A stretch of DNA of 31,675 bases from Candidatus Kaiserbacteria bacterium (GTDB lineage: Bacteria > Patescibacteriota > Minisyncoccia > Phycocordibacterales > Phycocordibacteraceae), in the NCBI GenBank assembly GCA_016182285.1, contig JACOXQ010000028.1, positions 1 through 31,675 on the forward strand, given 5' to 3'. Shown piece after piece: positions 12,032-28,007 of the stretch. Position numbers and translations under genes: made by a program. Numbering within the stretch: position 1 is the stretch's first letter; each line of letters starts with the position of its first letter. The notes under the pieces are model-generated. The model made no database searches. It was not told the origin of the DNA and worked only from the letters and a program-made list of their open reading frames with translations.

Positions 12032-12034
12032 AGC

Positions 12035-12916
12035 ATGGACCCGCAAAACATTCAAAACATACGCACGCGGTACGGCGCATTCTTTATAGATGTAGTGCGC
12101 GATAAGAAAATGGCGTACGCGCTTAAGAGCGCGGCGTACCCGAGCGAAGGCCTGCTTCGTTTGGCGCGCCTATTCGTGAACGAAAAGAGCGTTGTCGTGG
12201 ATATCGGCGCGCACATAGGCACCTTTGCCGTCCCGATCGCCGCTCATGCAGGCAGAGTCATCGCCTTTGAGCCGTCGCCGGCTTCCTTTGAACTCCTATC
12301 CCGGAACGTTGGAGCGGCAAACGGGAATTTCGAGCTCAAACAAGAAGCCCTGGGGAAAGAGAGTGGCAGCGGCACGATCCTCGTGCGTAACGCGTCAAAC
12401 GCCGGAGCGAACACGCTTTCGCCTGGCGACGACATTCCGGTTGCGACGCTTGACAGCGAGGTTGCGCATGCCGACTTCATAAAAATAGATGTGGAGGGCA
12501 TGGAGCTGGATGTGCTTCGCGGCGGCGCAGGGCTAATTGAGCGTGCGCGGCCGGCCGTTCTCTTTGAAGTGAATCTCTTCCAGTTGCGCGCGCACGGCAC
12601 GTCTCCTCGCGCACTGGAGCGCTTTTTCAAAACGCGGAAATATTCCCTCTATTTCCCGCTTGCGGGAAAACTCGCATGCGTTGCGAACACAACGCTGGTG
12701 TCAGCGCTCTTCGCGCCGCGCGCGTGGCTCTTCGGGAGCGACAGCGCGCCGTTCGATCTTCTCGCGGTACCGCGCGAGCGCCCGCTCCCGGTTCCGTGCG
12801 GCGGTTTTTTCCGGCTTATCAGGTATCTTATATCGGAGAACCTCACAGCAAAACTCACGCGCCTATCGCGCATCTTTTCACATGCGTCACGGCGTTATAC
12901 TGGACATACCGCATGA
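12035..12916 (+). CDS. FkbM family methyltransferase
   Basis: VVDIGAHIGTF, VIAFEPSP, FIKIDVEGMELDVLRG, PAVLFEV. Confidence 0.92.
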   Translation: MDPQNIQNIRTRYGAFFIDVVRDKKMAYALKSAAYPSEGLLRLARLFVNEKSVVVDIGAHIGTFAVPIAAHAGRVIAFEPSPASFELLSRNVGAANGNFELKQEALGKESGSGTILVRNASNAGANTLSPGDDIPVATLDSEVAHADFIKIDVEGMELDVLRGGAGLIERARPAVLFEVNLFQLRAHGTSPRALERFFKTRKYSLYFPLAGKLACVANTTLVSALFAPRAWLFGSDSAPFDLLAVPRERPLPVPCGGFFRLIRYLISENLTAKLTRLSRIFSHASRRYTGHTA

Positions 12917-14055
12917 AGCTAATCTATCTCTCGCACTGGCGCTTTCCATCTGAAAAGACGCTAACGCCGTTTGTACTGCAAACTTGTGCCCATTTCGCGC
13001 GGCTCGGTTGGGAAGTGGAGCTGTGGGTCCCGCGCCGGCATAATAATTACAAGCCGGAGGAGGACGTGTTTGAGCTCTACCACATCTCTCCGCGGTTTGT
13101 CATACGCAGGCTCGCCTGCATTGATACAATGAGCTCTCTTGGCACATTCGGATTTTTACTCATGGTGCTTACGTTCAATATATCTGCGTATTTAAAATTA
13201 CGTCACGAGCGGATGGTCGTTATATATGCGCCGGATATTCGCGACGTTATCTTGCCGCTGCTTCGAGGCATGCCGGTCTTTGTGGAGATACACGACTTTT
13301 ATATAAGCTCGTTGGATTTTATCAATCGCTTCGTATTCAAGCGCGTTACAGGGCTTATTGTGACAAACTCGCATAAACTACGACACATTGCTCTCCATTA
13401 TCTTGTATCCGGCGAGCGGATGCTGCGTCAACCCAATGCGGTAGATGTGAAAGCCTTTGACATTTCTGCTACACAAGCGGAGGCGCGTAAAAGGCTTGGG
13501 CTGCCGTCAACCGGGAAGATCGCACTCTATACCGGGCATCTCTTCGCGTGGAAAGGCGTGCATACTCTTGCCGACGCGGCGGCATTTCTGCCGGCTGAAG
13601 TTTCGGTACTTTTCGTAGGCGGAACGCCAGAGGATCGCGCAGCGCTCGAGCGGTACGTTCATGACCGATCGCTACCGCGCATCGCCTTCGTGCCGCATCA
13701 GCCGTCTGACAAAATACCGCTCTATCAGAAAGCGGCGGACGTGCTCGTTCTGCCGAATACGGCGAAGGAAGAGGCTTCGCGCGTGGAAACTTCCCCGGTT
13801 AAACTCTTTGAATATCTCGCTTCCGGTAAGCCTATTGTTGCTTCTGACATCCCTTCAATCCGGGATATCGTCTCGGAGCGGGAGGTGTTCTTTGCTCAGC
13901 CGGACGATGGGGAAAGCTTCGCACGCGTCATTGTAGAAGCACTGTCTGGCGACACTGACCGCTCGAGCGCTGCGCGCTCTCTCGCTGAAAACAGCAGCTG
14001 GGAAAAGCGCGCGAAAAATATTGATGCCCTAATGCGCCGTCTCCTCCATGTTTAA
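12913..14055 (+). CDS. GT4 family glycosyltransferase
   Basis: Start ATG 12913 (ATGA overlap; MKLIYLSHWRFPSEK). YTGHL..WKGV, ADVLVLPN, TSPVKLFEYLASGKPIVASD. Confidence 0.9.
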   Translation: MKLIYLSHWRFPSEKTLTPFVLQTCAHFARLGWEVELWVPRRHNNYKPEEDVFELYHISPRFVIRRLACIDTMSSLGTFGFLLMVLTFNISAYLKLRHERMVVIYAPDIRDVILPLLRGMPVFVEIHDFYISSLDFINRFVFKRVTGLIVTNSHKLRHIALHYLVSGERMLRQPNAVDVKAFDISATQAEARKRLGLPSTGKIALYTGHLFAWKGVHTLADAAAFLPAEVSVLFVGGTPEDRAALERYVHDRSLPRIAFVPHQPSDKIPLYQKAADVLVLPNTAKEEASRVETSPVKLFEYLASGKPIVASDIPSIRDIVSEREVFFAQPDDGESFARVIVEALSGDTDRSSAARSLAENSSWEKRAKNIDALMRRLLHV

Positions 14056-15067
14056 AGCACTTACCTTCCGACCCGCTTCCATCGGCGATGCGCTGATGGG
14101 CAAATATTTTTTAGAGAACATCCGTGCGGAGCATCCCGATGCGCGGCTCGGCATCGTCGTCGGCAGCCGAGCCGGAATGCTGAAAGACTTGTTCGCGGGT
14201 GAACCTTGGCTGGAGGTGGTTGAGGCGAATCGCCGAAACCTACCGGCACTCATGAAGATGTGGCGAGGGTGGCGAGGAAGCGAAATTGTACTCACCAATT
14301 ACACGGCAGGCACGCTGAATCTGTCCGCCAAGCTCATGGGTCGTTTACTCGCCAAACGAGGAGCGCTCGCAGGATTTGATGACTCCTCTTCTGTGAATCA
14401 CTTTCTGTACGACCACTTGCTCCCGCGCCCGATACGCGACCGCGCGGTGCGTCTGCATGAATGCGATGCTTTGCAGGCTCTCGGGGTGCCAGTAGCGCAC
14501 GAGCGTCTGACGCTTCAGTACGTGCCGATGGTCGGCGTCGCGGAGAAGTTCAGCATCAGCGGGGACTATGTCATCGTGCATCTGTTTTCGGGAAGCAAGA
14601 CACGCGGACTGGAGACGGAGCAAATGCGAACCTTGCTTATTAAGCTGCATAAGCTCATGCCCGACATCACGTTGGTCCTTTCTGGCGGCGCTGGTGATGC
14701 TTCCGAAGCGGCCGAGGCGTCGGAGGGACTGCCAGCAGTTGTCATCGCGGGCCGTGCGTCACTCCAGGAACTTATGAATCTTATCGTTGGCTCAAGGGTA
14801 GTCGTCTCGCTTGATACGGGCGTCGGCCACTTGGCGGCACATCTTGGCCGTCCGCCGGTCATTATGTCCACCTGTCTCGGGCGAATAAGCTGGTGGGGTC
14901 CCGACCAGTATGGATTCAACAAGTTCACCACAGGCGGCCCCGGCATCCCGGCGGCGTTATTTACGCGTGCGGACCGCTGTGTCGGAGGCCACGTGTTCAA
15001 GTCGTACCCTGACTGCCTTGTCTCTATCGATATGCACGCTGTCGCAGAAAAGACCGCCACTGTCTAA
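14048..15067 (+). CDS. GT9 family glycosyltransferase (ADP-heptose:heptosyltransferase-like)
   Basis: RPASIGDALM, VHLFSG, AGRASLQEL, VVSLDTGVGHLAAHLG are GT9 (WaaC/WaaF/WaaQ-type) hallmarks. Confidence 0.85.
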   Translation: MFKALTFRPASIGDALMGKYFLENIRAEHPDARLGIVVGSRAGMLKDLFAGEPWLEVVEANRRNLPALMKMWRGWRGSEIVLTNYTAGTLNLSAKLMGRLLAKRGALAGFDDSSSVNHFLYDHLLPRPIRDRAVRLHECDALQALGVPVAHERLTLQYVPMVGVAEKFSISGDYVIVHLFSGSKTRGLETEQMRTLLIKLHKLMPDITLVLSGGAGDASEAAEASEGLPAVVIAGRASLQELMNLIVGSRVVVSLDTGVGHLAAHLGRPPVIMSTCLGRISWWGPDQYGFNKFTTGGPGIPAALFTRADRCVGGHVFKSYPDCLVSIDMHAVAEKTATV

Positions 15068-16209
15068 TGGTCGTTCGTATAACGGTGGGCGATTTTCTCT
15101 AGGACGTCGAAATGTTTCTTATACCAAGCCACCGTTCGCTCTAGCCCTTCATCGAACGAGACGTGTGGCTTGAAGCCAAGCGTCTTGAGCTTTGAGGAAT
15201 CGGCAAATTGATCTGGAATCTCTATAAAATTGGACGGTTTTTCAATGGTAATGGGTTCTATATTCCTTATATCCTTCCGCAACATTGAAATAATATCGAC
15301 GACGCTCTTTATCTTCTCACAGCGCTTCGAGTCCTCTGATGTCTCGTTCTCGCTATAGGAACCGATGTTGAACGCCGGCCAGCCGTACACCGAAACGCCG
15401 CTCTTCGGTATATTCTCTTTCTTGTTGCCGTAATACTCCTGTAACTGTTCAGCTATGAACATATTGGCTCGTACCGCGTCTTCCACATAGATGTACTCTC
15501 GCAAGACTTTTTCATTCCCAATGTTGATAACAGGTGGTTTGCCAGAAAGAAGCCTCATTATAGTCCTCGGTATTAGCCGGGTAAAGTTCAAGTCTCCGGG
15601 GCCAAACATGTTGCAACATCGGGTTATACCCACAGGCAATTTGAATTGTAAAGCATAAGCCTGGGCGATCATATCAGTGCATACCTTGGACGTGCTATAC
15701 ATGTCCAGGCCTCGCAGAGCGTAATTTTCATGGTACGGCAGTTTCTCCGTCTCACCGAACGCATGGTCTCCGTACGATTTGTCGGAAGAAGCGACGATTA
15801 CCCTCGGTATCTTATTCACCCGGGCTGCCTCCAGAATATTCATGGTAGGGATTACGTTATTCTCGATGGTCGACAGTGGAGAATTTGCGGCGTCGCTCAC
15901 GATAGCAGACGCAGCCAGATGAAATACCGTATCGAATTGGTGCCTATCACAAAGACGCTTGACGTCCTGATACCCGAGCAGATTTATGTGCTCAATATCA
16001 GCTTGTGCGGGGTCATCCCCATTCTCTTTCAGAAGAAAAGAAGTATGTAAGGGGCGATTATGCCTTACCGTGGTGACTACCACAGCTTCCTCTGCCAAAA
16101 GAGCCTGAATGAGGTGTGAAGCTAGAAAGCCGTCACCTCCAGTGACCAATACTCTTTTACCGAACCAAAAATTAGCGTTTCTCTTGGTCTTCTGCCTGGC
16201 CATAATCAT
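15064..16209 (-). CDS. NDP-hexose 4,6-dehydratase / epimerase (extended SDR; RfbG/Gmd-like)
   Basis: FWFGKRVLVTGGDGFLASHL, VFHLAASAIV, ASSDKSYG, YSTSK (YxxxK), NMFGPGD, YIYVEDAV. Start at ATG 16209 or 16203; the TTG-type extension to 16254 is unlikely. Convergent stops overlap with GT9 at 15064-15067. Confidence 0.88.
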   Translation of the reverse strand: MIMARQKTKRNANFWFGKRVLVTGGDGFLASHLIQALLAEEAVVVTTVRHNRPLHTSFLLKENGDDPAQADIEHINLLGYQDVKRLCDRHQFDTVFHLAASAIVSDAANSPLSTIENNVIPTMNILEAARVNKIPRVIVASSDKSYGDHAFGETEKLPYHENYALRGLDMYSTSKVCTDMIAQAYALQFKLPVGITRCCNMFGPGDLNFTRLIPRTIMRLLSGKPPVINIGNEKVLREYIYVEDAVRANMFIAEQLQEYYGNKKENIPKSGVSVYGWPAFNIGSYSENETSEDSKRCEKIKSVVDIISMLRKDIRNIEPITIEKPSNFIEIPDQFADSSKLKTLGFKPHVSFDEGLERTVAWYKKHFDVLEKIAHRYTNDH

Positions 16210-16216
16210 TTTTGAG

Positions 16217-16222
16217 AGTATA
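16217..16222 (-). promoter_or_regulatory. -10 element TATACT for the minus-strand SDR gene
   Basis: Plus-strand AGTATA at 16217-16222, 7 nt from ATG 16209; no convincing -35. Confidence 0.35.
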
Positions 16223-16317
16223 CACCAACTTTGCCGATAGACGAAGATATGCAATAATCGCGCTGGATGGTCTTTGACTTGTATTCAACTTCAAACTACT
16301 AAATATCGGAGGGTCCC

Positions 16318-18150
16318 ATGGACCGTAAGGTAAAAGTGCTCCTCGTAGCACGGTATTACATTATCGAGCCCCTGGGACTTCTTCATCTCGTCGGGCTCGC
16401 CACATCACTCGGCTGTGAGGTGGATGTGGAACTCGTTCCCAACAACGACTTCACCGGCCTGTACCGGCGTGTGGAGGAGTGGAAGCCGGAATATGTGGGC
16501 TTCCAGATTTGGACGGGGTGGCATCTGCAGACCTTCGCCGCGTGCGACCGTGTGCGCTCTATGGGCCCGCAGGTCATCATCGGCGGTCCGCATGTCACCT
16601 ACTTCACGGAGGAGTGCGCCAAGCATGCCGACTATGTGGTCCGGGGCGACGGATTCAGAAACTTCCGTCGCATTCTGCAGGGCGAAATCGGGTGTGGGGT
16701 GCACTTCGACACCGAGCAATTGGCGGAGAAGTTCCCCTTGCCGAATCGGAGTATCGTGTATGACAAGTACCCGGTGCTCCGTGATAGCCCCATCCGGAGC
16801 ATGATCACATCAGTCGGGTGTCCGTTCACCTGTAGCTATTGCTATGCGCCGGAGTGGAACAAGATGTACGGCGGCTTTCATCACACACAGCGGTCGGTGG
16901 ACGACATCGTCCGCGAGGGTGTTGAAATCCGCGACCGATGGGGCGCGAAGATGATTTATCTTCAAGATGATATCTTCGGCTTCGACTACAAAGTGTGGTT
17001 GCCGGAGTTCGCTCGGCGGTGGAAAGAAGAAGTCGGTATCCCGTTTCATTGCCAGATAAGGCTGGAACTCACCCGCTATCGCGCGGGAGATGAACGGCTT
17101 GATTTGTTTGTGGAGGCGGGATGTACCGGCATTACTCTTGCCATTGAATCCGGCGATGCGTTCCTACGAGAGCATGTGCTACACCGCGAAATGACGGATG
17201 AGCTCATTCTGGATGGGTGCGATAAGATCCGTTCACGGGGGATGACCCTGCGTACGGAACAAATTTTGGCGGTGCCGTTCAGCAGTCTAGAGACCGACCT
17301 TTCCACTCTCGACCTCAACAATCGCATAGGACCGGAGATGGCATGGACATCCATCCTTGCCCCATACGGGGGTACAGAAATGGGGGACGTCGCTAAAGCG
17401 TTCGGATACTACAAAGGCGACAATGATGATCTTGAGGAGGAGTTCTTTAGGCGGAGCGTTATGCGGCATTCAAAAACGGCAAAGAATGCCATCGAGCCGG
17501 TAGTGCGCGAAATGGTTGAGTCCAATAAGGCAATGGAACGGGCGAATCGTCATTCGAAAAGTCCGCTCCGACGCCTTGAGGCGCGTGAGGTCGCACCGCT
17601 CGTTATGGAAGTGTCTATCCGCGACGAGCGGGACGAATTCTCCCGCAAGCATCTGAGGGGGCCGAAGCCGCTCTGCACGATTGAGTTCATGGATGATGAA
17701 GAAAATGATCGGTACGCCGATCAGATAGTCATTCTCCAGCGGCTCTTTATGTGGTTCTCGCTGGTCCCTGTGGCTATGGACTTGGCACAAAAATACGTGA
17801 TGCTCCCGCGAGAGGAATGGACGTGGAAGAAGCTCGGACAGGTGGCCTCAGAGCACTTTGAGGCGATCGGTAAGGGGAGTGATGCGGCACGATGGGTTCA
17901 AGAACTCATTCGCGCGTTCGGATGCTGTTCATTAGACGAGCTTCCGGATGTCGTGAGGGATAATCCTTACTACTTCGTATTTTTTCCTTCAAGCGCCGAG
18001 TTCGCCAAGCACGTGGTTGAATCTGGCGTCGTGCAAGAGAGCGCAGAGCCCGGTTTTCAGTTCGACAAGATTGGTCATGTGGCACGACACTGGCTGTTTG
18101 CCCGCTCGCTTTACAAAGTAGAGGAAAGCACGAAGCCAATCGCATCGTAA
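16318..18150 (+). CDS. Cobalamin-binding domain radical SAM enzyme with long C-terminal extension
   Basis: N-terminal B12-binding Rossmannoid domain (EPLGLLHL...VGFQIW...VIIGGPHVT); CxxxCxxC motif CPFTCSYC at 16819-16842; LQDDIF; LAIESGD. SD GGAGG at 16308-16312. Confidence 0.9.
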   Translation: MDRKVKVLLVARYYIIEPLGLLHLVGLATSLGCEVDVELVPNNDFTGLYRRVEEWKPEYVGFQIWTGWHLQTFAACDRVRSMGPQVIIGGPHVTYFTEECAKHADYVVRGDGFRNFRRILQGEIGCGVHFDTEQLAEKFPLPNRSIVYDKYPVLRDSPIRSMITSVGCPFTCSYCYAPEWNKMYGGFHHTQRSVDDIVREGVEIRDRWGAKMIYLQDDIFGFDYKVWLPEFARRWKEEVGIPFHCQIRLELTRYRAGDERLDLFVEAGCTGITLAIESGDAFLREHVLHREMTDELILDGCDKIRSRGMTLRTEQILAVPFSSLETDLSTLDLNNRIGPEMAWTSILAPYGGTEMGDVAKAFGYYKGDNDDLEEEFFRRSVMRHSKTAKNAIEPVVREMVESNKAMERANRHSKSPLRRLEAREVAPLVMEVSIRDERDEFSRKHLRGPKPLCTIEFMDDEENDRYADQIVILQRLFMWFSLVPVAMDLAQKYVMLPREEWTWKKLGQVASEHFEAIGKGSDAARWVQELIRAFGCCSLDELPDVVRDNPYYFVFFPSSAEFAKHVVESGVVQESAEPGFQFDKIGHVARHWLFARSLYKVEESTKPIAS

Positions 18151-18164
18151 TTGTTGGCACATTT

Positions 18165-18208
18165 AAAAATCCCGTCCCCGCTTCTCGCGCGGACGGGATT
18201 CCTTTTTT
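18165..18208. terminator. Bidirectional intrinsic terminator between the convergent radical SAM and hldC-like genes
   Basis: Perfect 10-bp stem AATCCCGTCC (18168-18177) / GGACGGGATT (18191-18200); T-run at 18203-18208 on + and A-run at 18165-18169 giving a U-tail on -. Confidence 0.8.
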
Positions 18209-18698
18209 ACTTTTTATACCGCTTGACGATGGTCTCGATGATGGTGGTGGTCGAGCGACCCTTCGTTTGCGGGGCAAGGTACACGCGGCCGCCGCCCTCC
18301 TCGACCGCCTGCTTCTCGGGAGCGAATGCAGGGGAGCGTTCACTCCCTTTACCCTTTACATGGATGTTCGGCCTAATCTTCCGCAGCCATGGGATAGGGC
18401 TCTTACTCCCGAAGATGAACACATAATCAACGCATGCAAGCGCCGCGAGTACCTCTGCCCGTTCGCGTGCAGGGACGATAGGCCGCAGGTCGCCCTTATT
18501 CTCTCGTACTGAAGCGTCGGAGTTCACTCCAAGGATAAGGAGGTCCCCAAGCTTTCGGGCGGCCGCCAGATTGCGCACGTGCCCTACGTGGATGATGTCG
18601 AAACAGCCGTTCGTGGTGATAACCTTCTTTCCGGCCTTTCGAGCGGCAGAAGCAATTTTTGCCGCCCTAGTAACTGAAATGATCTTTTGTTTTAACAT
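18207..18698 (-). CDS. hldC: HxGH nucleotidyltransferase, RfaE domain II / HldC-like (heptose-1-phosphate adenylyltransferase)
   Basis: TNGCFDIIHVGHVRNL, LILGVNSDASV, RPIVPARERAEVLAAL..VDYV, HVKG, STTTII. Strong SD TAAGGAG at 18710-18704. Confidence 0.85.
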   Translation of the reverse strand: MLKQKIISVTRAAKIASAARKAGKKVITTNGCFDIIHVGHVRNLAAARKLGDLLILGVNSDASVRENKGDLRPIVPARERAEVLAALACVDYVFIFGSKSPIPWLRKIRPNIHVKGKGSERSPAFAPEKQAVEEGGGRVYLAPQTKGRSTTTIIETIVKRYKK

Positions 18699-18710
18699 GT
18701 CGTCTCCTTA

Positions 18711-18739
18711 TTGTGTCTAGACAGACTTTACCATACACT
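18711..18739. promoter_or_regulatory. Overlapping divergent promoters for the hldC-like and gmhB-like genes
   Basis: Plus strand: TTGTGT (18711-16), 17 bp, TACACT (18734-39). Minus strand: extended -10 TGgTAAAGT at 18733-18725. Intergenic gap is only 54 bp. Confidence 0.5.
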
Positions 18740-18752
18740 AAAAGGCCTATAT

Positions 18753-19340
18753 ATGAAACAAGCAGTTTTTCTGGACCGGGAAGGCACGGTCATAACTTTG
18801 GGAGACGCTACCGGTCGCCTAAAAGACATCAAGCGCATGCGCCTATTACCAGGAGTGGCGAGTGCCATACGTCTGCTGAATAAGGCTGGTTTTGTGGTTA
18901 TCATACACACCAATCAGACCGTGGTCGCCTGGGGCCAGGTGTCTGAAAAGAAACTTCGGCATATACACGACGTGCTTTGTGAGCGATTGCGGAAGAAAGG
19001 AGCGCTGGTCGATGCGGTGTATTACTGCCCGCATCATCCCGAAGCCCCTCTGGAGAAATACCGCAAGGTGTGTAAATGCAGGAAACCAAAGGCCGGCATG
19101 ATGCTGGAGGCACTTAAGAAGTATCAGATAAAGGCCAGTCAAAGTTTTATGATAGGAGACAGCAGTAAGGATATTCTCGCAGGCAAGCGTGCAGGATTGC
19201 AGACGATATTGGTACAGACGGGCAATGCAGGCAAAGAGCGCGGAGCGGTGGCGGTAGAGCCCAACCATGTTGCAAAAGATCTTCTTGCCGCCGCTCACTA
19301 CATAAAAAATAAAAGCGCGTCCCGAAAGCTACGCGCTTGA
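18753..19340 (+). CDS. gmhB: HAD-IIIA phosphatase, D,D-heptose 1,7-bisphosphate phosphatase (GmhB)-like, with a DRE variant of motif I
   Basis: MKQAVFLDREGTV, TNQ, Zn site YYCPHHP...CKCRKPK.GM, motif IV MIGDSSKDILAG. Start ATG 18753 preferred over 18711. Confidence 0.85.
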   Translation: MKQAVFLDREGTVITLGDATGRLKDIKRMRLLPGVASAIRLLNKAGFVVIIHTNQTVVAWGQVSEKKLRHIHDVLCERLRKKGALVDAVYYCPHHPEAPLEKYRKVCKCRKPKAGMMLEALKKYQIKASQSFMIGDSSKDILAGKRAGLQTILVQTGNAGKERGAVAVEPNHVAKDLLAAAHYIKNKSASRKLRA

Positions 19341-19342
19341 AA

Positions 19343-19792
19343 TCATTCAATCCGAATTTCGTTCGGATCCAGAATCAGAACGACCGTATCTCTGTACGTT
19401 ATTCCTGGAATAAGTGGAGCGAGAATTTCAAAAGTATCTTGCTTGTGCTGATGGCGAGCCCCCTTGCTCTTATCCGGATGATAGACCCATCCGTCATAGC
19501 ACACACCCCTGAAGCACAACCGGCACTTAAAGATGAAGAAATCTTCCGTTAGGTCGGGGTGCCATTTGAGCCCGCAATAGTTTGGTTCTCGAACGAGGAT
19601 CGTACGAGTCCGTGGCGCAATGGAGACGTTCAGTGTTCCTGGATAACATCCTGAGAGATCCAGGCCTAGCTCCTTGAACAGCTGGATTTGCATCTTGATG
19701 GTGCTACCCCCGAAAGGGTTCTCCGTAGCCAGCCCTGAAGCGATTTTCCACCCCTTCACTACGATACCTTCAACTCTCTGCGAGAGACCCAT
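19343..19792 (-). CDS. Hypothetical 149-aa protein resembling the CTP-dependent riboflavin kinase (archaeal RibK) fold
   Basis: EGIVVKG N-terminus, ELGLDLSGCYPGTLNV (19642-19625) and EILAP...D.V C-terminus parallel RibK motifs recalled from memory. SD GGAG upstream; TTGACA at 19850-19845 on the minus strand. Confidence 0.6.
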   Translation of the reverse strand: MGLSQRVEGIVVKGWKIASGLATENPFGGSTIKMQIQLFKELGLDLSGCYPGTLNVSIAPRTRTILVREPNYCGLKWHPDLTEDFFIFKCRLCFRGVCYDGWVYHPDKSKGARHQHKQDTFEILAPLIPGITYRDTVVLILDPNEIRIE

Positions 19793-19885
19793 ATCAATTC
19801 TCCTGATTATGTCCTAAACATATATAACTGCAAAACTTAATATCTGTCAATAGTTTTTAGTTTCATCATGTCAGGAAACGTGTGG

Positions 19886-19894
19886 TGGTATAGT
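19886..19894 (+). promoter_or_regulatory. Extended -10 element (TGgTATAGT)
   Basis: TGnTAnnnT 19 nt before ATG 19914. Confidence 0.55.
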
Positions 19895-19913
19895 AACGAC
19901 ACTTTCCAACGGT

Positions 19914-20873
19914 ATGCGCTCCACTAAAAAAATCTTGATTATCGGCGACCTTATCCTTGACGTATTCCATCACGGCACATACATTGGTCAATCGTTGTCG
20001 CATGCAAAAACACCGGTAGCATTAAGCCGTTCCTCAACTTACACATGGGGTGGAGCCGGGTTTGTGGTGCGTAACATGTTGGCTCTCGGCGGCAAGATCT
20101 CTTTTATTTCGGCCCTCGGCAATGACGACTTTGCCGAACGAGCGAATCGCTTTACTCATCCCAACCTTAAAAAATTATTTCTCCACATTCCACACAAACC
20201 GACGACGGTTAAACAGCGCTTTTGGATGGGAGAAAAGAGCCTGCTCGGCTGGCATCAGTTTGACAACTCGTTCCTCTCAGAGACATTCGCACGCACATTG
20301 CTCGCGCGCGTGCGCGCTGAATTACCCTCCGTAAACAAAGTCGTTATTGCTGATTACCGGCACGGTCTCCTGTCACCAACGCTGGCTAAAAAAATAGTCG
20401 ACGAATGTGCACATCTGCATGTACCGCTTTATGTTGATTCACAAATTTCCTACGATAACACCGGCAATCATATTTGGTACAGAGGAGCGTCATTGTTTTG
20501 TCTGAATCAAAAGGAGGCTCGAAGCATCGATCCGCGATTTAATCAAAATAAACCGGAAACTTCGCTCCTTCGTCTTCAAAAGATGCTTGGAGCTCAAGAT
20601 ATTGTAATCAAACTTGGCGCACAAGGTTCCATTGCTTTGATAGGCGATGAGTACGTTAAAACCGTCGCACATAAGGTGCGTGAGGTAGACAGCACTGGGG
20701 CCGGGGACGCGTTTATCGCCGCTCTCGCACTTGGAGAAGCTCCACCGACACGCGAAGATTTGGAGCGAGCAAACCTCTGGGCCGCTCTTTCAACGACTAA
20801 AATAGGAACCGTCATTTCTCCTACATCTGAATTTAAAGCCCATCTTAAAAAGCACCTCTCACGTCGCCGTTGA
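19914..20873 (+). CDS. PfkB/ribokinase family sugar kinase, RfaE domain I / HldA-like
   Basis: ILIIGDLILD, WGGAGFV..N, TTVKQRF, IADYRHG, VIKLGAQG, VDSTGAGDAF. The RISPEAPVPV segment of canonical HldE is replaced by QSLSHAKTPVA. Confidence 0.82.
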   Translation: MRSTKKILIIGDLILDVFHHGTYIGQSLSHAKTPVALSRSSTYTWGGAGFVVRNMLALGGKISFISALGNDDFAERANRFTHPNLKKLFLHIPHKPTTVKQRFWMGEKSLLGWHQFDNSFLSETFARTLLARVRAELPSVNKVVIADYRHGLLSPTLAKKIVDECAHLHVPLYVDSQISYDNTGNHIWYRGASLFCLNQKEARSIDPRFNQNKPETSLLRLQKMLGAQDIVIKLGAQGSIALIGDEYVKTVAHKVREVDSTGAGDAFIAALALGEAPPTREDLERANLWAALSTTKIGTVISPTSEFKAHLKKHLSRRR

Positions 20874-20898
20874 CAGACCCTCTAAATTGGTTTAGAGT
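20870..20898 (+). promoter_or_regulatory. Sigma70-type promoter for the EEP gene
   Basis: TTGACA (20870-75, overlapping the kinase TGA stop), 17-bp spacer, TAGAGT (20893-98); SD GGAGGT at 20929-20934. Confidence 0.75.
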
Positions 20899-20939
20899 AG
20901 TCCTTGGACACTTTGAACAACTGACATCGGAGGTGCGTC

Positions 20940-21683
20940 GTGCGAGAGCTACATAACGGCCTTCGGGTCGTCACACTCAACATGGACTGGAACAAGAATC
21001 TTGGTCGGGTTCTGCCGTTCCTGTCGGACCGTCAAGCAGATGTTGTCTGCTTGCAAGAAGTGCGTGAAGACGCCCTTCCGGTCATCGCCGAGGCGGCCGG
21101 AAACTATTACTTCTATGCGCCTATGTGCGGAGGTAAGATACATGGAGCACCTAGCACAGTCGGCATCGCGATATTCTCGCGACTGCCACTTCTGCAGACG
21201 AAGGCACGCTATTACGTTGGTGCGGCTCACCGGATCGTTGAACTTGACGAACAAACGCTGGAGAGCCGTCGAGCGACGACCTATCGGGCACTTGCGTTCG
21301 GTGGCGTGCAAAGAGGCGATACGGTCTATCGTATCGTCACCACGCATTTCACCTGGACACCAGACGGGAAAGCGGATGAATTCCAACGGCACGACCTTCA
21401 AAAGATGCTTGGACTGTTGCAGAAAGAAGGCGAATATCTCTTGTGCGGGGACTTCAACGCGCCGCGCGGGGGTGAAATTTACAAGACCCTCTCGCAGAAA
21501 CTGAAGGACAATGTGCCAGCGCACTACGTCACCAGTATTGACCCGGAGCGCCATCGCATCAAAGGGCTCAAGTCAATGGTGGATGGTCTTTTCACCACTT
21601 CTGGGTACGTTGTCTCGGATGTGCGCTTGCATTTCGGGGTGAGCGACCATGGCGCATTAGAGGCCGTTGTGTCGCGAGAGTGA
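20940..21683 (+). CDS. Endonuclease/exonuclease/phosphatase (EEP) family hydrolase
   Basis: [31 protein letters not shown] and SDH are the full EEP catalytic set. GTG start with a good SD. Confidence 0.88.
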
Positions 21684-21693
21684 GCTACTTAAT

Positions 21694-21724
21694 ATGCCGT
21701 CGCGCAAGCGGCGGCATCTTTTTT
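21694..21724 (+). terminator. Intrinsic terminator after the EEP gene
   Basis: Stem ATGCCGTCGC / GCGGCGGCAT (one G-U pair) with a GCAA (GNRA) loop, followed by CTTTTTT. Confidence 0.82.
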
Positions 21725-21836
21725 GCAAAGATTTTCCCGATTGTTTAAACAGTATTGGTTCTGAAACCATAGCGCATAATGTTGGAGTTATATTAGGGAC
21801 AGTAAATCCGTATTTTCTGATTACTCTATTTTTTTG

Positions 21837-21845
21837 TGGTAACAT
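21837..21845 (+). promoter_or_regulatory. Extended -10 element (TGgTAACAT) of the phosphonate operon
   Basis: In the AT-rich 172-bp gap, 10 nt before ATG 21856. Confidence 0.45.
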
Positions 21846-21855
21846 ACCCACTTCT

Positions 21856-23181
21856 ATGAACATGAAATGCAAGAAAACGGTGTATGTCGCCATGAGCGCC
21901 GACTTGGTGCATCCGGGGCACCTGAACATTATTAAAGAAGGCGCGAAGCTCGGCGAGGTGACGGTTGGGCTTCTCACCGACGAAGCCATCGCGAGCTACA
22001 AGCGTCTGCCATATATGCCGTACTCGCAGCGTAAGGAGGTCGTGGAGAACATCAAGGGCGTCTCGCGTGTCATTCCGCAGGTGACGCTAGACTATCGTCC
22101 GAACCTGAAAAAGCTGAAGCCGGATTATGTCGTCCACGGTGATGATTGGAGGATGGGCGTCCAGCGCGAGACGCGCAAGCAGGTCATAGAGACACTTAAG
22201 AAGTGGGGCGGCAAGCTCGTGGAGCCGGAATACACGCGCAACATCTCATCAACGGCACTCAATAATGCGCTCAAAGAAATAGGGACGACACCCGACATCC
22301 GCCTGCGGCGATTCCGCCGTCTGATCGAGACGAAGCCCCAGATCCGCGGCATTGAGGTGCATAACGGTATTACCGGTCTTATCGTAGAGCATGTCTCGGT
22401 GACGAAGGGTAATAAACGAGAAGAGTTCGATTTTATGTGGCTTTCAAGCCTTACCGACTCCACCGCGAAGGGCAAGCCCGACACCGAGCTGGTGGACTCA
22501 ACGTCGCGCTTCAATACTATCCATGAGATATTGGAAATTACCACGAAGCCGATTATCTATGACGGCGACACCGGCGGACAGGCCGAACATTTCCCGTATC
22601 TGGTGCGCACACTTGAGCGCCTTGGCGTTTCCGGCGTCATTATTGAAGATAAACAAGGGCTCAAGAAGAATTCGCTCTTCGGCACCTCGGTCGCACAGCA
22701 TATGGCAGACCCACGACTTTTCAGTGAGAAGATACGCGAACGGAAGAAGGCGCAGGTGACACCCGACTTCCTCATCATCGCGCGGCTCGAGAGCATGATC
22801 GCCGGCAAGGGAGTCGCCGATGCCTTGAAGCGCGCCAAAATGTATATTGATGCAGGCGCGGACGGCATTATGGTCCACAGTAAGGAGAAGAGCCCCAAAG
22901 AAGTGCTCGAGTTCTGCAAGGAATACAAGAAGTTTAAGCGCAGAGTTCCGCTCATCGCCGTGCCGACGACCTACGACACCATCACAGAGAAGCAACTTGA
23001 AAAAGCCGGCGTGAACGTCGTGATTTATGCGAACCATCTGCTCCGAAGCGCGTATCCCGCGATGTTGAAGACGGCTGAACTCATTCTGACTCACGGCCGC
23101 GCATCAGAAGTGGCGGAATATTGCATGCCTATCTCGCAAATCCTGACGCTCATAGAGCGCAAAGGCAATGGTGCATCCTGA
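21856..23181 (+). CDS. pepM: Phosphoenolpyruvate mutase fused to an N-terminal HxGH cytidylyltransferase domain (Fom1/AepX-type architecture)
   Basis: N-terminal [14 protein letters not shown] (HPGH 21910-21921), LLTDEAI, VVHGDDW. C-terminal PEP mutase with WLSSL, DGDTGG and the diagnostic EDKx5NS motif [10 protein letters not shown] (22645-22674), [20 protein letters not shown]. Start ATG 21856 or 21862. Confidence 0.95.
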
Positions 23182-24301
23182 AAAATTCATTGAGTCGCTC
23201 CGCCGGAACGGCATCTCGTTCTTCTCCGGCGTTCCCGATTCACTGCTAAAAGACTTGCTTGCATATATCGAGCAGAATGTTCCCGCGTATGAGCGTATCA
23301 CCGCGGCGAACGAAGGCAATGCGATAGCGATAGCCGCCGGATACCATCTGGCGACCGGCAAGGTCGCCGCAGTATATATGCAAAATTCAGGTATCGGCAA
23401 CGCAGTCAACCCGCTGACCTCACTTGCGGACAAAGATGTGTATGCAATCCCAATGCTACTCATCATCGGGTGGCGCGGCGAGCCGGGTGTCAAGGACGAG
23501 CCGCAGCATAAGAAGCAGGGCCGGATTTCGGACAAACTGCTTGATGTTCTTGAAATTCCCCATGCGGTGCTTTCAAAAACGATGTCCGGCGAAGCAATCG
23601 CATCGGAAGTCGCGCGGCTTGCCGCCCTTTCGCGGACGGAAGGACGTCCGTGCGCGCTTTTGGTGAAGAGCGGGACATTTGAGGCGTATCCTATGCGCAA
23701 GCCCGTCGCCGAGGCTGGCTCTCTCGGCAGGGAAGAGGCGATTGGGTTGGTGCTCGATAGTTTGGATGGAGGTGAAATCGTCGTCAGTACGACGGGGAAG
23801 ATTTCGCGTGAATTATACGAAGAAAGAAAGAATCGCGGCGAGAGTTTCGGAAAAGATTTTTTGACGGTCGGTTCCATGGGTCATGCATCGCAAATTGCTT
23901 TGGGGATAGCGCATCAGAAAAAAGACAGGCAGGTGTATTGTCTGGACGGCGACGGCGCTACCATTATGCATATGGGCGGACTCGCCACCGCAGGTTGGAT
24001 GCATCCTAAAAACTTTAAACACATCGTTCTCAACAATCTTGCGCACGAATCGGTCGGAGGCCAGCCGTCTGCCGCGAGCATCGTAGATCTTCCGGGCGTT
24101 GCAAAAAACTGCGGATACGCATTCGCATCAACAGCCGCAACGAAGGAAGATCTGCCGCCGCGGCTCGCAGAGCTCAAAGAGAAGAACGGACCGGCTTTCC
24201 TAGAGATACGAGTGAATCTGGAATCCAGAAAAGACCTCGGTCGTCCGAAAGAAAGTCCGTTTGAGAACAAGAAGAAATTCATGGATTTTATCGGGAAATA
24301 A
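23168..24301 (+). CDS. ppd: Phosphonopyruvate decarboxylase (ThDP-dependent, single-chain)
   Basis: [65 protein letters not shown], ThDP motif [11 protein letters not shown]...NN; directly follows pepM with a 14-nt overlap. Confidence 0.95.
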
Positions 24302-24312
24302 TCGTTGCCCGT

Positions 24313-25305
24313 ATGAAACAAACGGAATACATCGGCGCAGGAGAGCTCTCCAAACTCTCTGGCATCGTGCAGGATTTCGCACCCAGTAAAGTGTTTTTAA
24401 TAACAGGTAAGAGCTCATACATAGCGTCCGGCGCGACACAACTCGTTGAGCTCGCGCTCGCGGGAATAGATGTTTTGCATTATACCGACATTAGTGCATT
24501 ACCTCTCGACGAAGACATTAAAAAAGGAGTTATAGCGTATACATCTTTCAATCCAGACCTTGTTATCGCTGTCGGTGGCGGACACGTCATTGATATGACG
24601 AAATCTATTAACTTCCTGGCTGGTAAAAAACCGCTCGTAGCGATTCCGACTACAGCAGGCACTGGTAGCGAGGCGACCTCGTTTTCGGTCGTATACAAAA
24701 ACGGGCGCAAAACATCGCTTGAGAGTCCGGACATGCTGCCGATGTTCGCTATCGTGGACCCGAATCTCGCGATGAGCGTATCAAGAGAAACCGCTTTACC
24801 GAGTGCACTTGACGCGCTCTGCCAGGCGATAGAATCGTTCTGGTCAAACAAGGCGACGGAAGAGTCGCGCGGATACGCGCGGCAAGCACTCCAACTTATA
24901 TGGAAAAACATTATTCCGGCGATTGAAAAAAGAGACAGCGGCGCAATTACAGCATTGTGTATCGGGGCGCATCTGGCGGGGAAGGCCATTAACATTTCCA
25001 AAACTACCGCGTGTCATGCTTTTTCCTATGGACTCACGTATCGTTTCGGCGTCCCGCACGGCATCGCAGTTGCCCTATTCCTTCCGAGCGTATACCGGTA
25101 CAATAACGTCTCGGGTCTGTCGATGTCTCCAGAAGATATTGAAGGGCTGCTTAGAAGATTTGGCATAACGAACCTGTCGCAGTATGGGGTCAAACCATCC
25201 GACATTGCGATGCTTGCGGCGGAGGTCAATACTGAAAGATTGGGCAATAATCCGCGCGTAATCCGCGAAGGGGACATTATTAACTTTTTTCAGAAAATCG
25301 TATAG
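24313..25305 (+). CDS. Group III iron-containing alcohol dehydrogenase, probable phosphonoacetaldehyde reductase (PhpC/FomC-like)
   Basis: AVGGGHVID, IPTTAGTGSEAT, DALCQAIESFWS, TTACHAFSY...GVPHG; position directly after pepM-ppd. Confidence 0.85.
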   Translation: MKQTEYIGAGELSKLSGIVQDFAPSKVFLITGKSSYIASGATQLVELALAGIDVLHYTDISALPLDEDIKKGVIAYTSFNPDLVIAVGGGHVIDMTKSINFLAGKKPLVAIPTTAGTGSEATSFSVVYKNGRKTSLESPDMLPMFAIVDPNLAMSVSRETALPSALDALCQAIESFWSNKATEESRGYARQALQLIWKNIIPAIEKRDSGAITALCIGAHLAGKAINISKTTACHAFSYGLTYRFGVPHGIAVALFLPSVYRYNNVSGLSMSPEDIEGLLRRFGITNLSQYGVKPSDIAMLAAEVNTERLGNNPRVIREGDIINFFQKIV

Positions 25306-25308
25306 CGT

Positions 25309-26121
25309 ATGGAATCCATCAAAGAACTTCGCGTCAAATTGCAGACTAATGTTCTCGGACACCCGATTTTACAGCGCGTGCCCTCAATATATGTAACCCG
25401 TCTTTTTCTCCTGACAAGTATAACGGCCAATCAAATATCGGCTGTCATGATTATCGTCGGTATCATTTCAGGGGTGGTTATAGCATTCGGCTATATATGG
25501 TTAGGCCTCGCCCTTATTTATTTGAACTTAGTGCTTGATGCTGTTGATGGCGAACTCGCGCGCTATAAAAAAACATTTTCTATGCGCGGTGTCTATCTGG
25601 ACCTCGTTAATCATCTCGTGGTATTTGAAGCATTCTTTCTCGGACTCACGCTCGCGGTGTCAGAAGTATGGACGAGACCAAACTTCGTACTGCTGACTGT
25701 AGGGATTGTCGGCGCGCTTGCTATGTGCATGCGGCGAGCCATCGGAGACCTGCATCGCGTTCTTTTTGTCCGCTCTTATAGCGAGCATCCTGACCTATTT
25801 CGCATCCCGCCAACTTCTTCAGAGGCCAATACCGGAACCGCGTCGGGCGCCAAGCCTTCTTCGTTTCGAGTTCTGATGAAAAACATCCTTTGGTATCTTC
25901 ACGAATCACACGAGGGAGGATACATGATTGTCGTCCTCGTGATTGCATATGCCGCGGAACGTCTCCTTCTGCCCGGAGCGCTCCATTATCCGATTCTCTC
26001 CTGGGTCGTGCTCTATTACGGCGTGACGTTGTGCTTGTATCTGACTCGAGAGATTATCGGCGGATTCTACTCCATTGAGAGCCGCATTGCTTCTTTAAGA
26101 GACCGATTTGCCTCAAAATGA
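25309..26121 (+). CDS. CDP-alcohol phosphotransferase family membrane protein (variant motif)
   Basis: TANQIS, and DAVDGELAR-x8-GVYLD-LVN-H at 25537-25614 matches DxxDGxxAR...GxxxDxxxD except for the last residue; several TM segments. Confidence 0.85.
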   Translation: MESIKELRVKLQTNVLGHPILQRVPSIYVTRLFLLTSITANQISAVMIIVGIISGVVIAFGYIWLGLALIYLNLVLDAVDGELARYKKTFSMRGVYLDLVNHLVVFEAFFLGLTLAVSEVWTRPNFVLLTVGIVGALAMCMRRAIGDLHRVLFVRSYSEHPDLFRIPPTSSEANTGTASGAKPSSFRVLMKNILWYLHESHEGGYMIVVLVIAYAAERLLLPGALHYPILSWVVLYYGVTLCLYLTREIIGGFYSIESRIASLRDRFASK

Positions 26122-28007
26122 GTGAGAACAAGAAAAACTTATTTATTATTTATGAACTCGAGCACCTACCGGTGCTCGAGAAGCGATTAGCAACTGGAGA
26201 AAAATTTGAAGTAGTGGCGCTCGACTGGGAGGTAGAGCTTGAACTTAAGAATCGCGGGATTCCGTATATGCCGCTCCGGGAACTAGCGAAGTCGCCGGAA
26301 GGGGAGCGCGGACCAGTTGAGTTCACGCGAAAGCTCGCGCGAACCTGGTATCGGGAGAAGGGCTTCGCCTTTTTCGCGCACGACGGCATTCTGCTCGGGG
26401 AGCCGTATGAAATGCCCTTTTTGTATTACTTCCAGATGCTTTACTATAACCTCTCCGTCATCGGGCAGGTACTCGAACGCCTGCGGCCGAGCCGCGTCGT
26501 CATTCCCGAATCATTTCGATATGTGCCGAAGACGGCACTGCCGACCGAGGCGCCGTTCGTACAGATTCCGTCTGCTGTCGCCCGTCATCTCGCGCAGGTG
26601 CGCGGTCTCGAATGTGAAGTAATTGAAGTCCCTGCGGCGTATCGGCATCGGGGTGAACGACAGGCAATAGTGCGCGGCATTACAGAACGTCTTGCGCGCG
26701 CGGTCACGGCCGTAGTGAATGCCGCGGTCAGTCTCCGCAGACCGCGTGCGATAAGGCTTTTCGCGACTGACCCGTGGTCACGCATAGCTCCCTTCGTGCG
26801 CGCCATGCCGGATCTGGAGGTCGTGATGTCCCGTCGGCACGAGCTCCTCGCCATGAAAAGCGACGTATGGCGCGCCCGCGCCCGTTTCCATCATAGGCTG
26901 GACTTCGCCGGCGCACACGAGAGAACGATCGCACGCGAAAAAGCCAAGAAGTTCACTCGCGCCTTTGAGGCGCTTGGAGAGAGACCGGAAGTTGCACGGG
27001 CGTTCGTTCATGACGGCATATCACTGTGGGAAGTGGCGCGCGAAGCGCTAAGAGCGGTGATAGCGAGCGGTGAGGATATGATACAGACGATTGAGAGCAC
27101 TAAGCGCCTGCTCTCGCGGCGGCGGATTAACTGTGTCCTGCTCTTCAGTTCAGTTAAGGGATACAACAACATCATCGCTCGCGTCGCCGAACGGGCGGGC
27201 ATTCCCTGTATTGACCTGCAGCATGCACTTGCTCCAATGGATTCCAATCATCCGTATTCCCGTCTTTCTGCGCATTACCTCGCCTCATACGGCCCGCACA
27301 TGGTTCGCCAGTACGCCGCATTCGGAGTAGACCCGTCGCGGGTCATACCCATCGGTTCTCCTCGCTTTGATTCATATACCAAGCCCATGCCGGAGTCCGC
27401 GCTGGCGGCCGTGCGCGAAAAATTGCGGCTAGAGACGTCCAAACCCACGGCATTGCTCGGCATCCCGTTCGTCTTTCCCCAGATAGATTATTATGGATTC
27501 ACGAGTTATGGTGCGCGCGACATTATTGAGGATCTCGCAAACCTTGCTCGCGAAAACATGGCGAATCAGTTCATTCTGCGCCCGAAGCCCGGACCCGAAC
27601 GCTTTAGTTTTTATAACCGCAAGGAGACTCTGGAACTTTTCGGCAGCCGCGCGCGCATGGCGCAATTTGAGAACCTGCGCGCTCTGCTTTCGCTCTCGGA
27701 TATCGTCGTTTCCATGAATTCTACGCTTGCGCTTGAAGCGCTCATCCTCCATCGGCCGGTCATTCTCTACCTGACACCCCGGCTAGACCACGATTTTGAT
27801 GACTGGGAGGCGGCAGGAGCTCTGCGCATCGCCCGCGACCGGACGGAGCTCGCCCGCCATTTCAATGGCCTGCAGTCGGCTGATGCGCGCGAAGAGCAAG
27901 TCCGGCGCGCTGATAAGTTTCTTGCAGAGCAATTCTGCTTTGACGGCCGTTCTCGGGAGCGCATGGCCGCATTTTTACGCAAGGTCGTCGCCGAGCACCA
28001 GTCCTGA
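26118..28007 (+). CDS. 629-aa hypothetical protein with a C-terminal GT-B-like domain (TagF/capsule-polymerase-like)
   Basis: DLQHA, VIPIGSPRFD, LRPKPG and LLSLSDIVVSMNSTLALEALILHRPVI resemble the C-terminal Rossmann lobe of CDP-glycerol/CMP-sugar transferase-like surface-carbohydrate proteins. ATGA-coupled to the CDP-AP gene. Function not assignable. Confidence 0.6.
   Translation: MSENKKNLFIIYELEHLPVLEKRLATGEKFEVVALDWEVELELKNRGIPYMPLRELAKSPEGERGPVEFTRKLARTWYREKGFAFFAHDGILLGEPYEMPFLYYFQMLYYNLSVIGQVLERLRPSRVVIPESFRYVPKTALPTEAPFVQIPSAVARHLAQVRGLECEVIEVPAAYRHRGERQAIVRGITERLARAVTAVVNAAVSLRRPRAIRLFATDPWSRIAPFVRAMPDLEVVMSRRHELLAMKSDVWRARARFHHRLDFAGAHERTIAREKAKKFTRAFEALGERPEVARAFVHDGISLWEVAREALRAVIASGEDMIQTIESTKRLLSRRRINCVLLFSSVKGYNNIIARVAERAGIPCIDLQHALAPMDSNHPYSRLSAHYLASYGPHMVRQYAAFGVDPSRVIPIGSPRFDSYTKPMPESALAAVREKLRLETSKPTALLGIPFVFPQIDYYGFTSYGARDIIEDLANLARENMANQFILRPKPGPERFSFYNRKETLELFGSRARMAQFENLRALLSLSDIVVSMNSTLALEALILHRPVILYLTPRLDHDFDDWEAAGALRIARDRTELARHFNGLQSADAREEQVRRADKFLAEQFCFDGRSRERMAAFLRKVVAEHQS

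Follow-up and report, generated by a model that had tools for sequence, protein, structure and literature searches.

Fom3 of Streptomyces wedmorensis, the cytidylyl-2-hydroxyethylphosphonate methyltransferase of fosfomycin biosynthesis, has the class B radical S-adenosylmethionine (SAM) architecture, and a protein of the same architecture is encoded in the 31,675-nucleotide stretch of DNA from a Candidatus Kaiserbacteria bacterium (contig JACOXQ010000028.1) that is analyzed here and referred to as the window. As in the fosfomycin set, the window gene (16318-18150; 610 aa) lies near genes for a Fom1-like fusion of a cytidylyltransferase (CyTase) and a phosphoenolpyruvate (PEP) mutase (PepM), a Fom2-like phosphonopyruvate decarboxylase (Ppd) and a FomC-like iron-containing alcohol dehydrogenase (Fe-ADH); unlike the fosfomycin set, the radical SAM gene stands outside the phosphonate operon. 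All coordinates are positions in the window, genes are on the forward strand unless stated otherwise, and L- and G-numbers denote the loci and genomes compared, G000 being the window's own genome (505 kb in 89 contigs, 78% complete), whose size suits a member of the Patescibacteria.

Two other groups of described systems are relevant. A PF01467-type CyTase fused to a PEP mutase (Ppm) bearing the EDKxxxxxNS motif, followed by Ppd, is common to the window, to the Fom1-type pathway and to the PntC-type phosphonoglycan pathways, and CyTase-Ppm fusions are found in 23.6% of Ppm proteins (PMC6697681). Relative to the PntC-type pathways the window has an Fe-ADH in place of the 2-aminoethylphosphonate (AEP) transaminase, which points to 2-hydroxyethylphosphonate (HEP) rather than AEP as the product, and its putative transferases are CDP-alcohol-transferase-like and TagF-like, not LicD-like; in both, the downstream transferase genes suggest a glycan or lipid destination.

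The second group comprises radical SAM enzymes acting on sugars. The best solved relative of the window protein is AprD4 (PDB 6FD2; NF033070), the 1,2-diol dehydratase of apramycin biosynthesis, which shares the N-terminal Rossmann-like domain followed by a radical SAM core and whose substrate is a sugar ring (an aminoglycoside). The two are only 19-20% identical, however, AprD4 (~455 aa) lacks the ~220-aa helical C-terminal domain of the window protein, and it acts together with AprD3, the reductase of an aminoglycoside cluster, rather than with a GT9 glycosyltransferase. Class B precedents on sugar carbons are provided by the C-methylases GenK, GenD1, MoeK5 and Fms7 and by HpnJ, which acts in a ring contraction (PMC9204698). 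The four C-methylases are likened to the window protein by description, and all these enzymes serve the synthesis of antibiotics or hopanoids rather than of surface glycans in organisms of the Candidate Phyla Radiation (CPR) or the DPANN archaea. We know of none that is paired with GT9 or ADP-heptose genes. A literature search found no cobalamin-type radical SAM enzyme linked to heptose, and yielded nothing helpful on B12-type radical SAM C-methyltransferases acting on nucleotide sugars.

The initial annotation of this DNA noted that the four fosfomycin-type enzyme classes occur within 9 kb, and all four are supported by Pfam and NCBIfam matches. It went on to propose that early fosfomycin logic may have been repurposed here, with the radical SAM enzyme possibly methylating CMP-HEP in the manner of Fom3. 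The Fom1/Fom2/FomC part of that proposal is supported, and the Fom3-like role is not. We read the domain content, gene order, cassette boundaries and co-occurrence patterns observed as probably those of a mosaic surface-glycan locus, in which a radical SAM cassette linked to GT9 and heptose genes adjoins an independent HEP-phosphonate operon, and in which the radical SAM protein is not the equivalent of Fom3.

The radical SAM protein and its relationship to Fom3

The window protein matches the Pfam B12-binding domain (PF02310, 42.5 bits against a cut-off of 32.1; residues 6-113), which is strongly conserved and includes a GGPH(A/V)T motif, and the Radical_SAM domain (PF04055, 52.7 bits), with a cluster motif CxxxCxxC (C168, C172 and C175) that is invariant in 24 homologues. 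An AlphaFold model made from the 24 homologues has a mean pLDDT of 92.5, and the protein divides into a B12-like Rossmann domain (1-130), a radical SAM core (~155-385) and a clade-specific helical C-terminal domain (~390-610) that is present in part of the clade. Two features of class B are found, the CxxxCxxC motif with a partial TIM barrel and the N-terminal B12-binding Rossmann domain, and the fold matches those of AprD4, MgmA, OxsB, CysS and TsrM with Z of 25-32. AprD4 is the best of the solved structures (phmmer 4e-11; Foldseek 1.5e-16; Z 32, 400 residues aligned, rmsd 3.6) and the sole clearly significant PDB match of the family profile (E 2e-16). None of the curated NCBIfam radical SAM cut-offs is reached: the top match, HpnJ (TIGR03471), scores 64.2 against 577.6, AprD4 (NF033070) 55.1 against 500 and PhpK (TIGR04479) 50.1 against 600. 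The protein has hundreds of close homologues, with 458 clusters at 50% identity reaching E<=1e-30, and in G000, which is 78% complete, no other protein with a B12-binding domain was found.

A search of the Swiss-Prot AlphaFold library with the window protein placed Fom3 (Q56184) fourth, at 21% identity over residues 3-378 only (E 2e-18; TM by hit 0.58). PH0819 and slr0309 (22%) are placed higher, and similar scores are obtained for BchR (19%), HpnR and HpnP. The alignment ends at residue 378 and Fom3 has no counterpart of the helical C-terminal domain; judged by these comparisons, the window protein appears to have no specific relationship to Fom3.

Distribution of the radical SAM gene and pepM outside the host family

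We took 80 loci with radical SAM relatives, including 10 kb on either side, from species-representative genomes and searched them by tblastn with all of the window proteins. PepM, Ppd and Fe-ADH were found within 10 kb at 0 of the 80 loci, even at E 1e-4. PEP mutase is absent from nine of ten genomes carrying orthologues (42-73% identical), and in the tenth, a 10-Mb Polyangiales genome, it is on another contig. The converse search gave the same picture: PepM occurs in 10 of 400 sampled Patescibacteria genomes and not one of these ten has an orthologue of the radical SAM gene, two of them having only paralogues of 26-32% identity on other contigs. Metagenomic contigs with radical SAM proteins 80-87% identical to that of the window carry a block consisting of the 290-aa protein, FkbM, (GT4), GT9, (SDR), radical SAM and GT4 genes – the SDR being a short-chain dehydrogenase/reductase – and there is no pepM within 10 kb of the radical SAM gene on these contigs, nor 10 kb further along the closest of them. 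Outside the host genus, orthologues of the radical SAM gene are thus usually found without pepM, the pattern that the initial annotation had set in advance as refuting a Fom3-like role; in the test of co-occurrence with pepM in other genomes that it had suggested, the exception is the host family, where four of the six genomes with the radical SAM gene have PepM.

The organization of the window is in line with this. As the initial annotation cautioned, the radical SAM gene is 3.7 kb from pepM and in a separate transcription unit. The interval is filled by HldC-, GmhB- and HldA-like genes, a gene for a 149-aa protein and a gene of the endonuclease/exonuclease/phosphatase (EEP) family, and contains four changes of gene orientation and two terminator-like sites on the forward strand, a weak hairpin (18183-18198) between the convergent radical SAM and HldC-like genes, and a strong intrinsic-terminator-like hairpin (21694-21717; 10-bp stem with 7 GC pairs, and a T-run) that divides the heptose genes from the phosphonate operon.

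A Fom3 analogue in this position would C-methylate CMP-HEP, and the resulting CMP-2-hydroxypropylphosphonate would be used by the CDP-alcohol-transferase-like and TagF-like enzymes to modify a glycan or lipid. The clustering of Fom1, Fom2, FomC and Fom3 enzyme classes within 9 kb is what such a pathway would look like, the class B architecture and the rank of Fom3 among the Swiss-Prot models are compatible with it, and the radical SAM gene and PepM occur together in four of the eight family genomes having either. We nonetheless regard it as most improbable. Beyond the genus the orthologues lack pepM as described above, and the PepM operons of the ten other CPR genomes, and of G474 and G580 within the family, are without the radical SAM gene. 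The resemblance to Fom3 is no closer than that to BchR or HpnR, and the window gene has its own transcription unit, with the heptose genes and two terminator-like sites intervening. Moreover, the radical SAM genes of the genus belong to three lineages, each nested among PepM-free relatives, and a Fom3-like function would therefore require repeated neofunctionalization in a clade that has no phosphonate connection elsewhere.

Association with GT9 and heptose genes

The conserved neighbors of the radical SAM gene point in a different direction. Open reading frames (ORFs) of 30 loci were clustered, and hidden Markov models (HMMs) built from the clusters were used to score GT9 and other genes within 10 kb of the radical SAM gene. 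A cluster identified by Pfam as GT9 directly adjoins the radical SAM gene in L002, L011, L014 and L018-L022, and by HMM a GT9 gene is within 10 kb at 21 of the 35 loci of the clade that includes the window protein (support 100/99) as against 0 of the 26 in the sister group (Fisher p = 2e-7). The window protein falls inside this 35-row clade and also has GT9 nearby; the gene (14048-15067; PF01075, 4e-11; custom GT9 HMM, 308 bits), which encodes a heptosyltransferase-family glycosyltransferase, is two genes upstream, and in L082 and L083 GT9 is directly upstream. In L003, L008, L013, L016, L018, L022 and L039 the radical SAM gene directly adjoins HldA and HldC genes, some of them fused (as HldE or with GmhB), and L018 and L039 also have GmhA (SIS_2). 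The clade is widespread, with hosts in the CPR, Myxococcota, Nitrospirota, Verrucomicrobiota, DPANN archaea and Methanosarcinales, and is biochemically uncharacterized; its conserved genomic partner is GT9, often with HldA, HldC, GmhB or GmhA. The caveat in the initial annotation that the enzyme could equally methylate a sugar is, with GT9 and heptose genes as its conserved partners, the better reading.

We propose that the radical SAM enzyme carries out radical tailoring of a sugar handled by GT9, most likely a heptose, either as the nucleotide sugar or after transfer. Two types of chemistry would be plausible, C-methylation, as performed on sugars by GenK and MoeK5, or an AprD4-like dehydration.

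The divergently transcribed SDR gene (15064-16254, reverse strand) was considered as a constant partner of the radical SAM gene, and its travelling with the gene had been named as an outcome that would count against the Fom3 proposal. It was rejected: the SDR-radical SAM pair is found only in L084 and L085, and in G580 the SDR (75% identical) is kept without the radical SAM gene. The protein is like NDP-sugar 4,6-dehydratases (Pfam Epimerase and GDP_Man_Dehyd), with scores of 134-144 bits to the NCBIfam dTDP- and CDP-glucose 4,6-dehydratase models that are under their cut-offs.

Other neighbors of the clade include an unannotated protein without a Pfam family, 580-597 aa long and encoded next to the radical SAM or GT9 gene in G036, a CPR genome of the host genus (L089:14936-16729, reverse strand), and in a Nealsonbacteria genome (L022:7088-8830, forward strand); it may likewise belong to the cassette. 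The 597-aa version, divergent from the radical SAM gene in G036, was examined as a candidate TagF-like protein and rejected, as it is not similar. In an Omnitrophota contig (L069) there are at least 10 B12-type radical SAM paralogues in a row over 22 kb.

Mosaic structure of the locus

The boundaries of the cassettes can be seen by alignment with two related loci. Window positions 11162-18123 are collinear with L084 at 77% nucleotide identity (blastn), and L084 diverges right past the stop codon of the radical SAM gene, continuing into GT4, RmlC and RmlD genes with no pepM over the next 19 kb. A single contig of G580 (L098) matches two segments, 12059-16227 (FkbM to SDR) and 21874-25620 (PepM to the CDP-alcohol-transferase-like gene), and on it an SDR-like gene and a GT2 gene connect the two blocks, with radical SAM and Hld genes absent. 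The segment that is specific to the window in this comparison, 16228-21873, contains the radical SAM, HldC, GmhB, 149-aa, HldA and EEP genes; relative to G580 the radical SAM gene has been gained or lost together with the heptose genes. G580 thus has a complete PepM operon in surroundings that are otherwise nearly identical and lack the radical SAM gene. On this contig (C5; L098:7000-17300) FkbM is accompanied by GT4 (92% identity), GT9 (74%) and SDR (75%), and the proteins of the PepM operon are 82, 70, 68, 49 and 46% identical to those of the window. In the closest relative the glycan locus contains a HicB/HicA toxin-antitoxin pair (L099:18153-18635), between the exporter and Wzy-like genes.

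Our interpretation is that three cassettes have been brought together. The first would be the FkbM-GT4-GT9-SDR-radical SAM block. It is preceded by the first gene of the conserved left block (11159-12031), encoding a 290-aa protein with a weak FkbM-like match (Pfam Methyltransf_21, E=3e-4) and 69-74% identical counterparts at the same position in L082, L083 and L084. The FkbM-family SAM methyltransferase gene that follows (12035-12916; PF05050, 1e-19) is kept in L082-L084 and L098. The GT4 glycosyltransferase (Pfam Glycos_transf_1) is 89-92% identical in L084 and L098; its longest ORF is 12676-14055, and since the relatives are ~380 aa long its start is probably near 12.9 kb rather than at 12676.

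The second cassette would consist of dispersed HldC-, GmhB- and HldA-like genes together with a small kinase-like protein. The HldC-like heptose-1-phosphate adenylyltransferase (18207-18698, reverse strand) scores 160.7 bits to TIGR02199 (cut-off 181.5), the GmhB-like HAD-IIIA heptose bisphosphate phosphatase (18711-19340) 158.2 bits to NF006506 (cut-off 178), and the HldA-like PfkB heptose-7-phosphate kinase (19914-20873) 148.9 bits to TIGR02198 (cut-off 345). The ORF at 19343-19792 (reverse strand) encodes a conserved 149-aa protein with a fold like that of DUF120 or CTP-dependent riboflavin kinase (TM 0.65; Pfam E only 0.1). That it is a real conserved protein is seen from ESM Atlas clusters of 150-160-aa relatives (TM 0.85-0.91), and a cluster of 518-aa GT9 proteins of Pseudomonadota aligns with it over 133 residues, which suggests a fusion of this type of domain to GT9 in that phylum. 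The last gene before the strong terminator (20940-21683) encodes the EEP-family protein (PF03372, 3.8e-17).

The phosphonate operon

The third cassette would be the terminator-insulated operon of CyTase-PepM, Ppd, Fe-ADH, CDP-alcohol-transferase-like and TagF-like genes, which is predicted to make CMP-HEP and transfer the phosphonate to a glycan or lipid. The Fom1-like fusion protein has CTP_transf_like and PEP_mutase domains, exceeds the PEP mutase cut-off (TIGR02320, 378.8 bits against 319.55), contains the Ppm-specific EDKxxxxxNS motif, and is 82-84% identical to its counterparts in G036, G580, G581 and G597. Ppd (23168-24301) also exceeds its equivalog cut-off (TIGR03297, 477.6 bits against 312.5), and the core of a phosphonate pathway is accordingly present. 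The Fe-ADH (24313-25305; Pfam Fe-ADH) is a candidate phosphonoacetaldehyde reductase, with the phosphonate-type model Phn_Fe-ADH/PsrA as its top NCBIfam match at 157 bits, below the 423.7 cut-off. On the basis of these matches the three enzymes should yield CMP-HEP.

The longest pepM ORF is 21667-23181, although the most likely start is the ATG at 21856 rather than the TTG at 21667, since the terminator at 21694-21717 sits inside the longer ORF and homology to the relatives begins at 21874. The protein starting at 21856 (21856-23181) is 441 aa long, and the relatives are 446-463 aa. The possibility that the EEP gene overlaps pepM or is coupled to it was rejected, given the strong terminator between them and the probable start at 21856.

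Downstream of Fe-ADH in the same operon are genes for a CDP-alcohol phosphatidyltransferase-like membrane protein (25309-26121; PF01066, 7.6e-6), which follows Fe-ADH in G036 and G580 too, and, close to where the conserved phosphonate block ends, for a TagF-like protein (26118-28007; Glyphos_transf, PF04464, 2.4e-7), 43-46% identical in G036 and G580. Because these two genes follow in the operon it is reasonable to suppose, as the initial annotation did, that the phosphonate is a head group of a glycan or lipid. In the pepM-less L083 (18290-20203) and L084 (14054-15922), genes for full-length counterparts of the TagF-like protein (27% identity) lie beside a CTP_transf_3 cytidylyltransferase gene, so this type of transferase is not specific to phosphonates. 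The earlier observation that there is no Fom4-like cupin epoxidase, FomA/FomB kinase or FomD-like gene also holds, with no cupin, FomA/B-type kinase or DUF402/FomD-family match in Pfam scans of the 31 main window ORFs. The phosphonate made would most likely be HEP without further modification, attached to the heptose-containing glycan on which the radical SAM enzyme is also proposed to act.

Alternative substrates and co-occurrence in the host family

Several observations weigh against the assignment of the radical SAM gene to a heptose cassette that is independent of the phosphonate operon. The first concern the sugar and the cofactor. ADP-heptose enzymes are the best NCBIfam matches of the HldA-, HldC- and GmhB-like proteins, all of which are below the equivalog cut-offs, and GmhA was searched for in G000 and not found, although the incompleteness of that genome means that this is no proof of absence. 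G036, G581 and G597 have GT9 and the radical SAM gene and no HldA-like gene, and heptose is consequently our inference as to the substrate and not a rule of the clade. AprD4 lies inside the 'B12-dependent' similarity network yet binds no cobalamin (PMC12931638), and with this as the nearest solved relative the binding or use of cobalamin by the window protein is a candidate property only.

It could also be that the enzyme acts on something other than a sugar, such as a lipid carrier or a protein, and that the adjacency of GT9 reflects shared islands for envelope biogenesis. Glycan genes are missing from the surroundings of one orthologue, in a member of the Stellaceae (L086), 14 of the 35 clade loci have no GT9 within 10 kb, and the substrates of class B radical SAM enzymes are very diverse (PMC9204698). 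Several of the GT9-negative loci are short contigs, however, and the contrast in GT9 content between the clade and its sister group spans many phyla, including archaea. With the radical SAM gene directly coupled to HldE or GT9 genes at several loci, and the best solved relative working on a sugar ring, we find a non-sugar substrate very unlikely, and prefer a GT9-handled sugar.

The second set of observations comes from a screen of all 259 genomes of the window's GTDB family. The radical SAM gene and PepM are both present in G000, G036, G581 and G597, the radical SAM gene without PepM in G571 and G608, and PepM without the radical SAM gene in G474 and G580. With G000 left out and kinship disregarded, the overlap gives a Fisher p of 3.5e-5, or 1e-3 among the GT9-positive genomes only. 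At least three lineages are represented among the co-occurring radical SAM copies (88, 52 and 47% identity), and in the tree every one of them is nested among sequences from PepM-free genomes of other taxa. The radical SAM and PepM genes are 4-10 kb apart in G000, G036 and G597. The p-values overstate the association, because the genomes are related and the locus recombines; some link between the radical SAM and PepM cassettes nevertheless exists in the host family. A Fom3-like chemistry is not made credible by it, given the several independent switches of substrate that would be needed.

This link suggests that both cassettes decorate the same kind of glycan in the host genus, and it is the basis of a further alternative, in which the cassettes are coupled through one glycan: the sugar tailored by the radical SAM enzyme and transferred by GT9 would be the acceptor of HEP, or part of its repeat unit, and the free phosphonate nucleotide would be untouched by the radical SAM enzyme. 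Such coupling would explain why the cassettes co-occur in the genus. GT9 is present in five of five genomes with the radical SAM gene and four of five with PepM (G000 excluded), against a background of 63/258, the overlap persists among GT9-positive genomes, and the pepM operon of G036 includes a GT9 gene directly before pepM. The cassettes also occur singly, however, with PepM alone in G580 and G474 and the radical SAM gene alone in G571, G608 and L084, and among related genomes with a recombining, mosaic locus they may simply be exchanged together between co-resident strains. We consider coupling through the glycan to be possible though unlikely. The more specific proposal that the two cassettes are functionally coupled, such that a tailored (C-methylated or deoxygenated) heptose receives the phosphonate, or that the radical SAM enzyme modifies the phosphonate after its transfer, seems to us rather doubtful, and we favor adjoining cassettes that are independent.

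Implications

The attractive annotation of this gene as a Fom3-like enzyme of methylated phosphonate synthesis is probably wrong and is removed, and the gene is reassigned to a large radical SAM clade. What chemistry this clade performs, whether C-methylation or deoxygenation of a seven-carbon sugar, becomes a tractable question across the CPR, DPANN archaea and many anaerobes. In the window the radical SAM-GT9 block adjoins an HEP-phosphonate operon, and in the host genus it co-occurs with one. The GT9-SDR block and PepM operon with the radical SAM gene (G000) and without it (G580) offer a natural comparison. Coupling of the two cassettes, if real, would give this ultra-small bacterium a surface phosphono-heptoglycan of a kind not yet described. 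The locus indicates that tiny symbiotic bacteria invest in phosphonate and radical SAM surface decoration alike.

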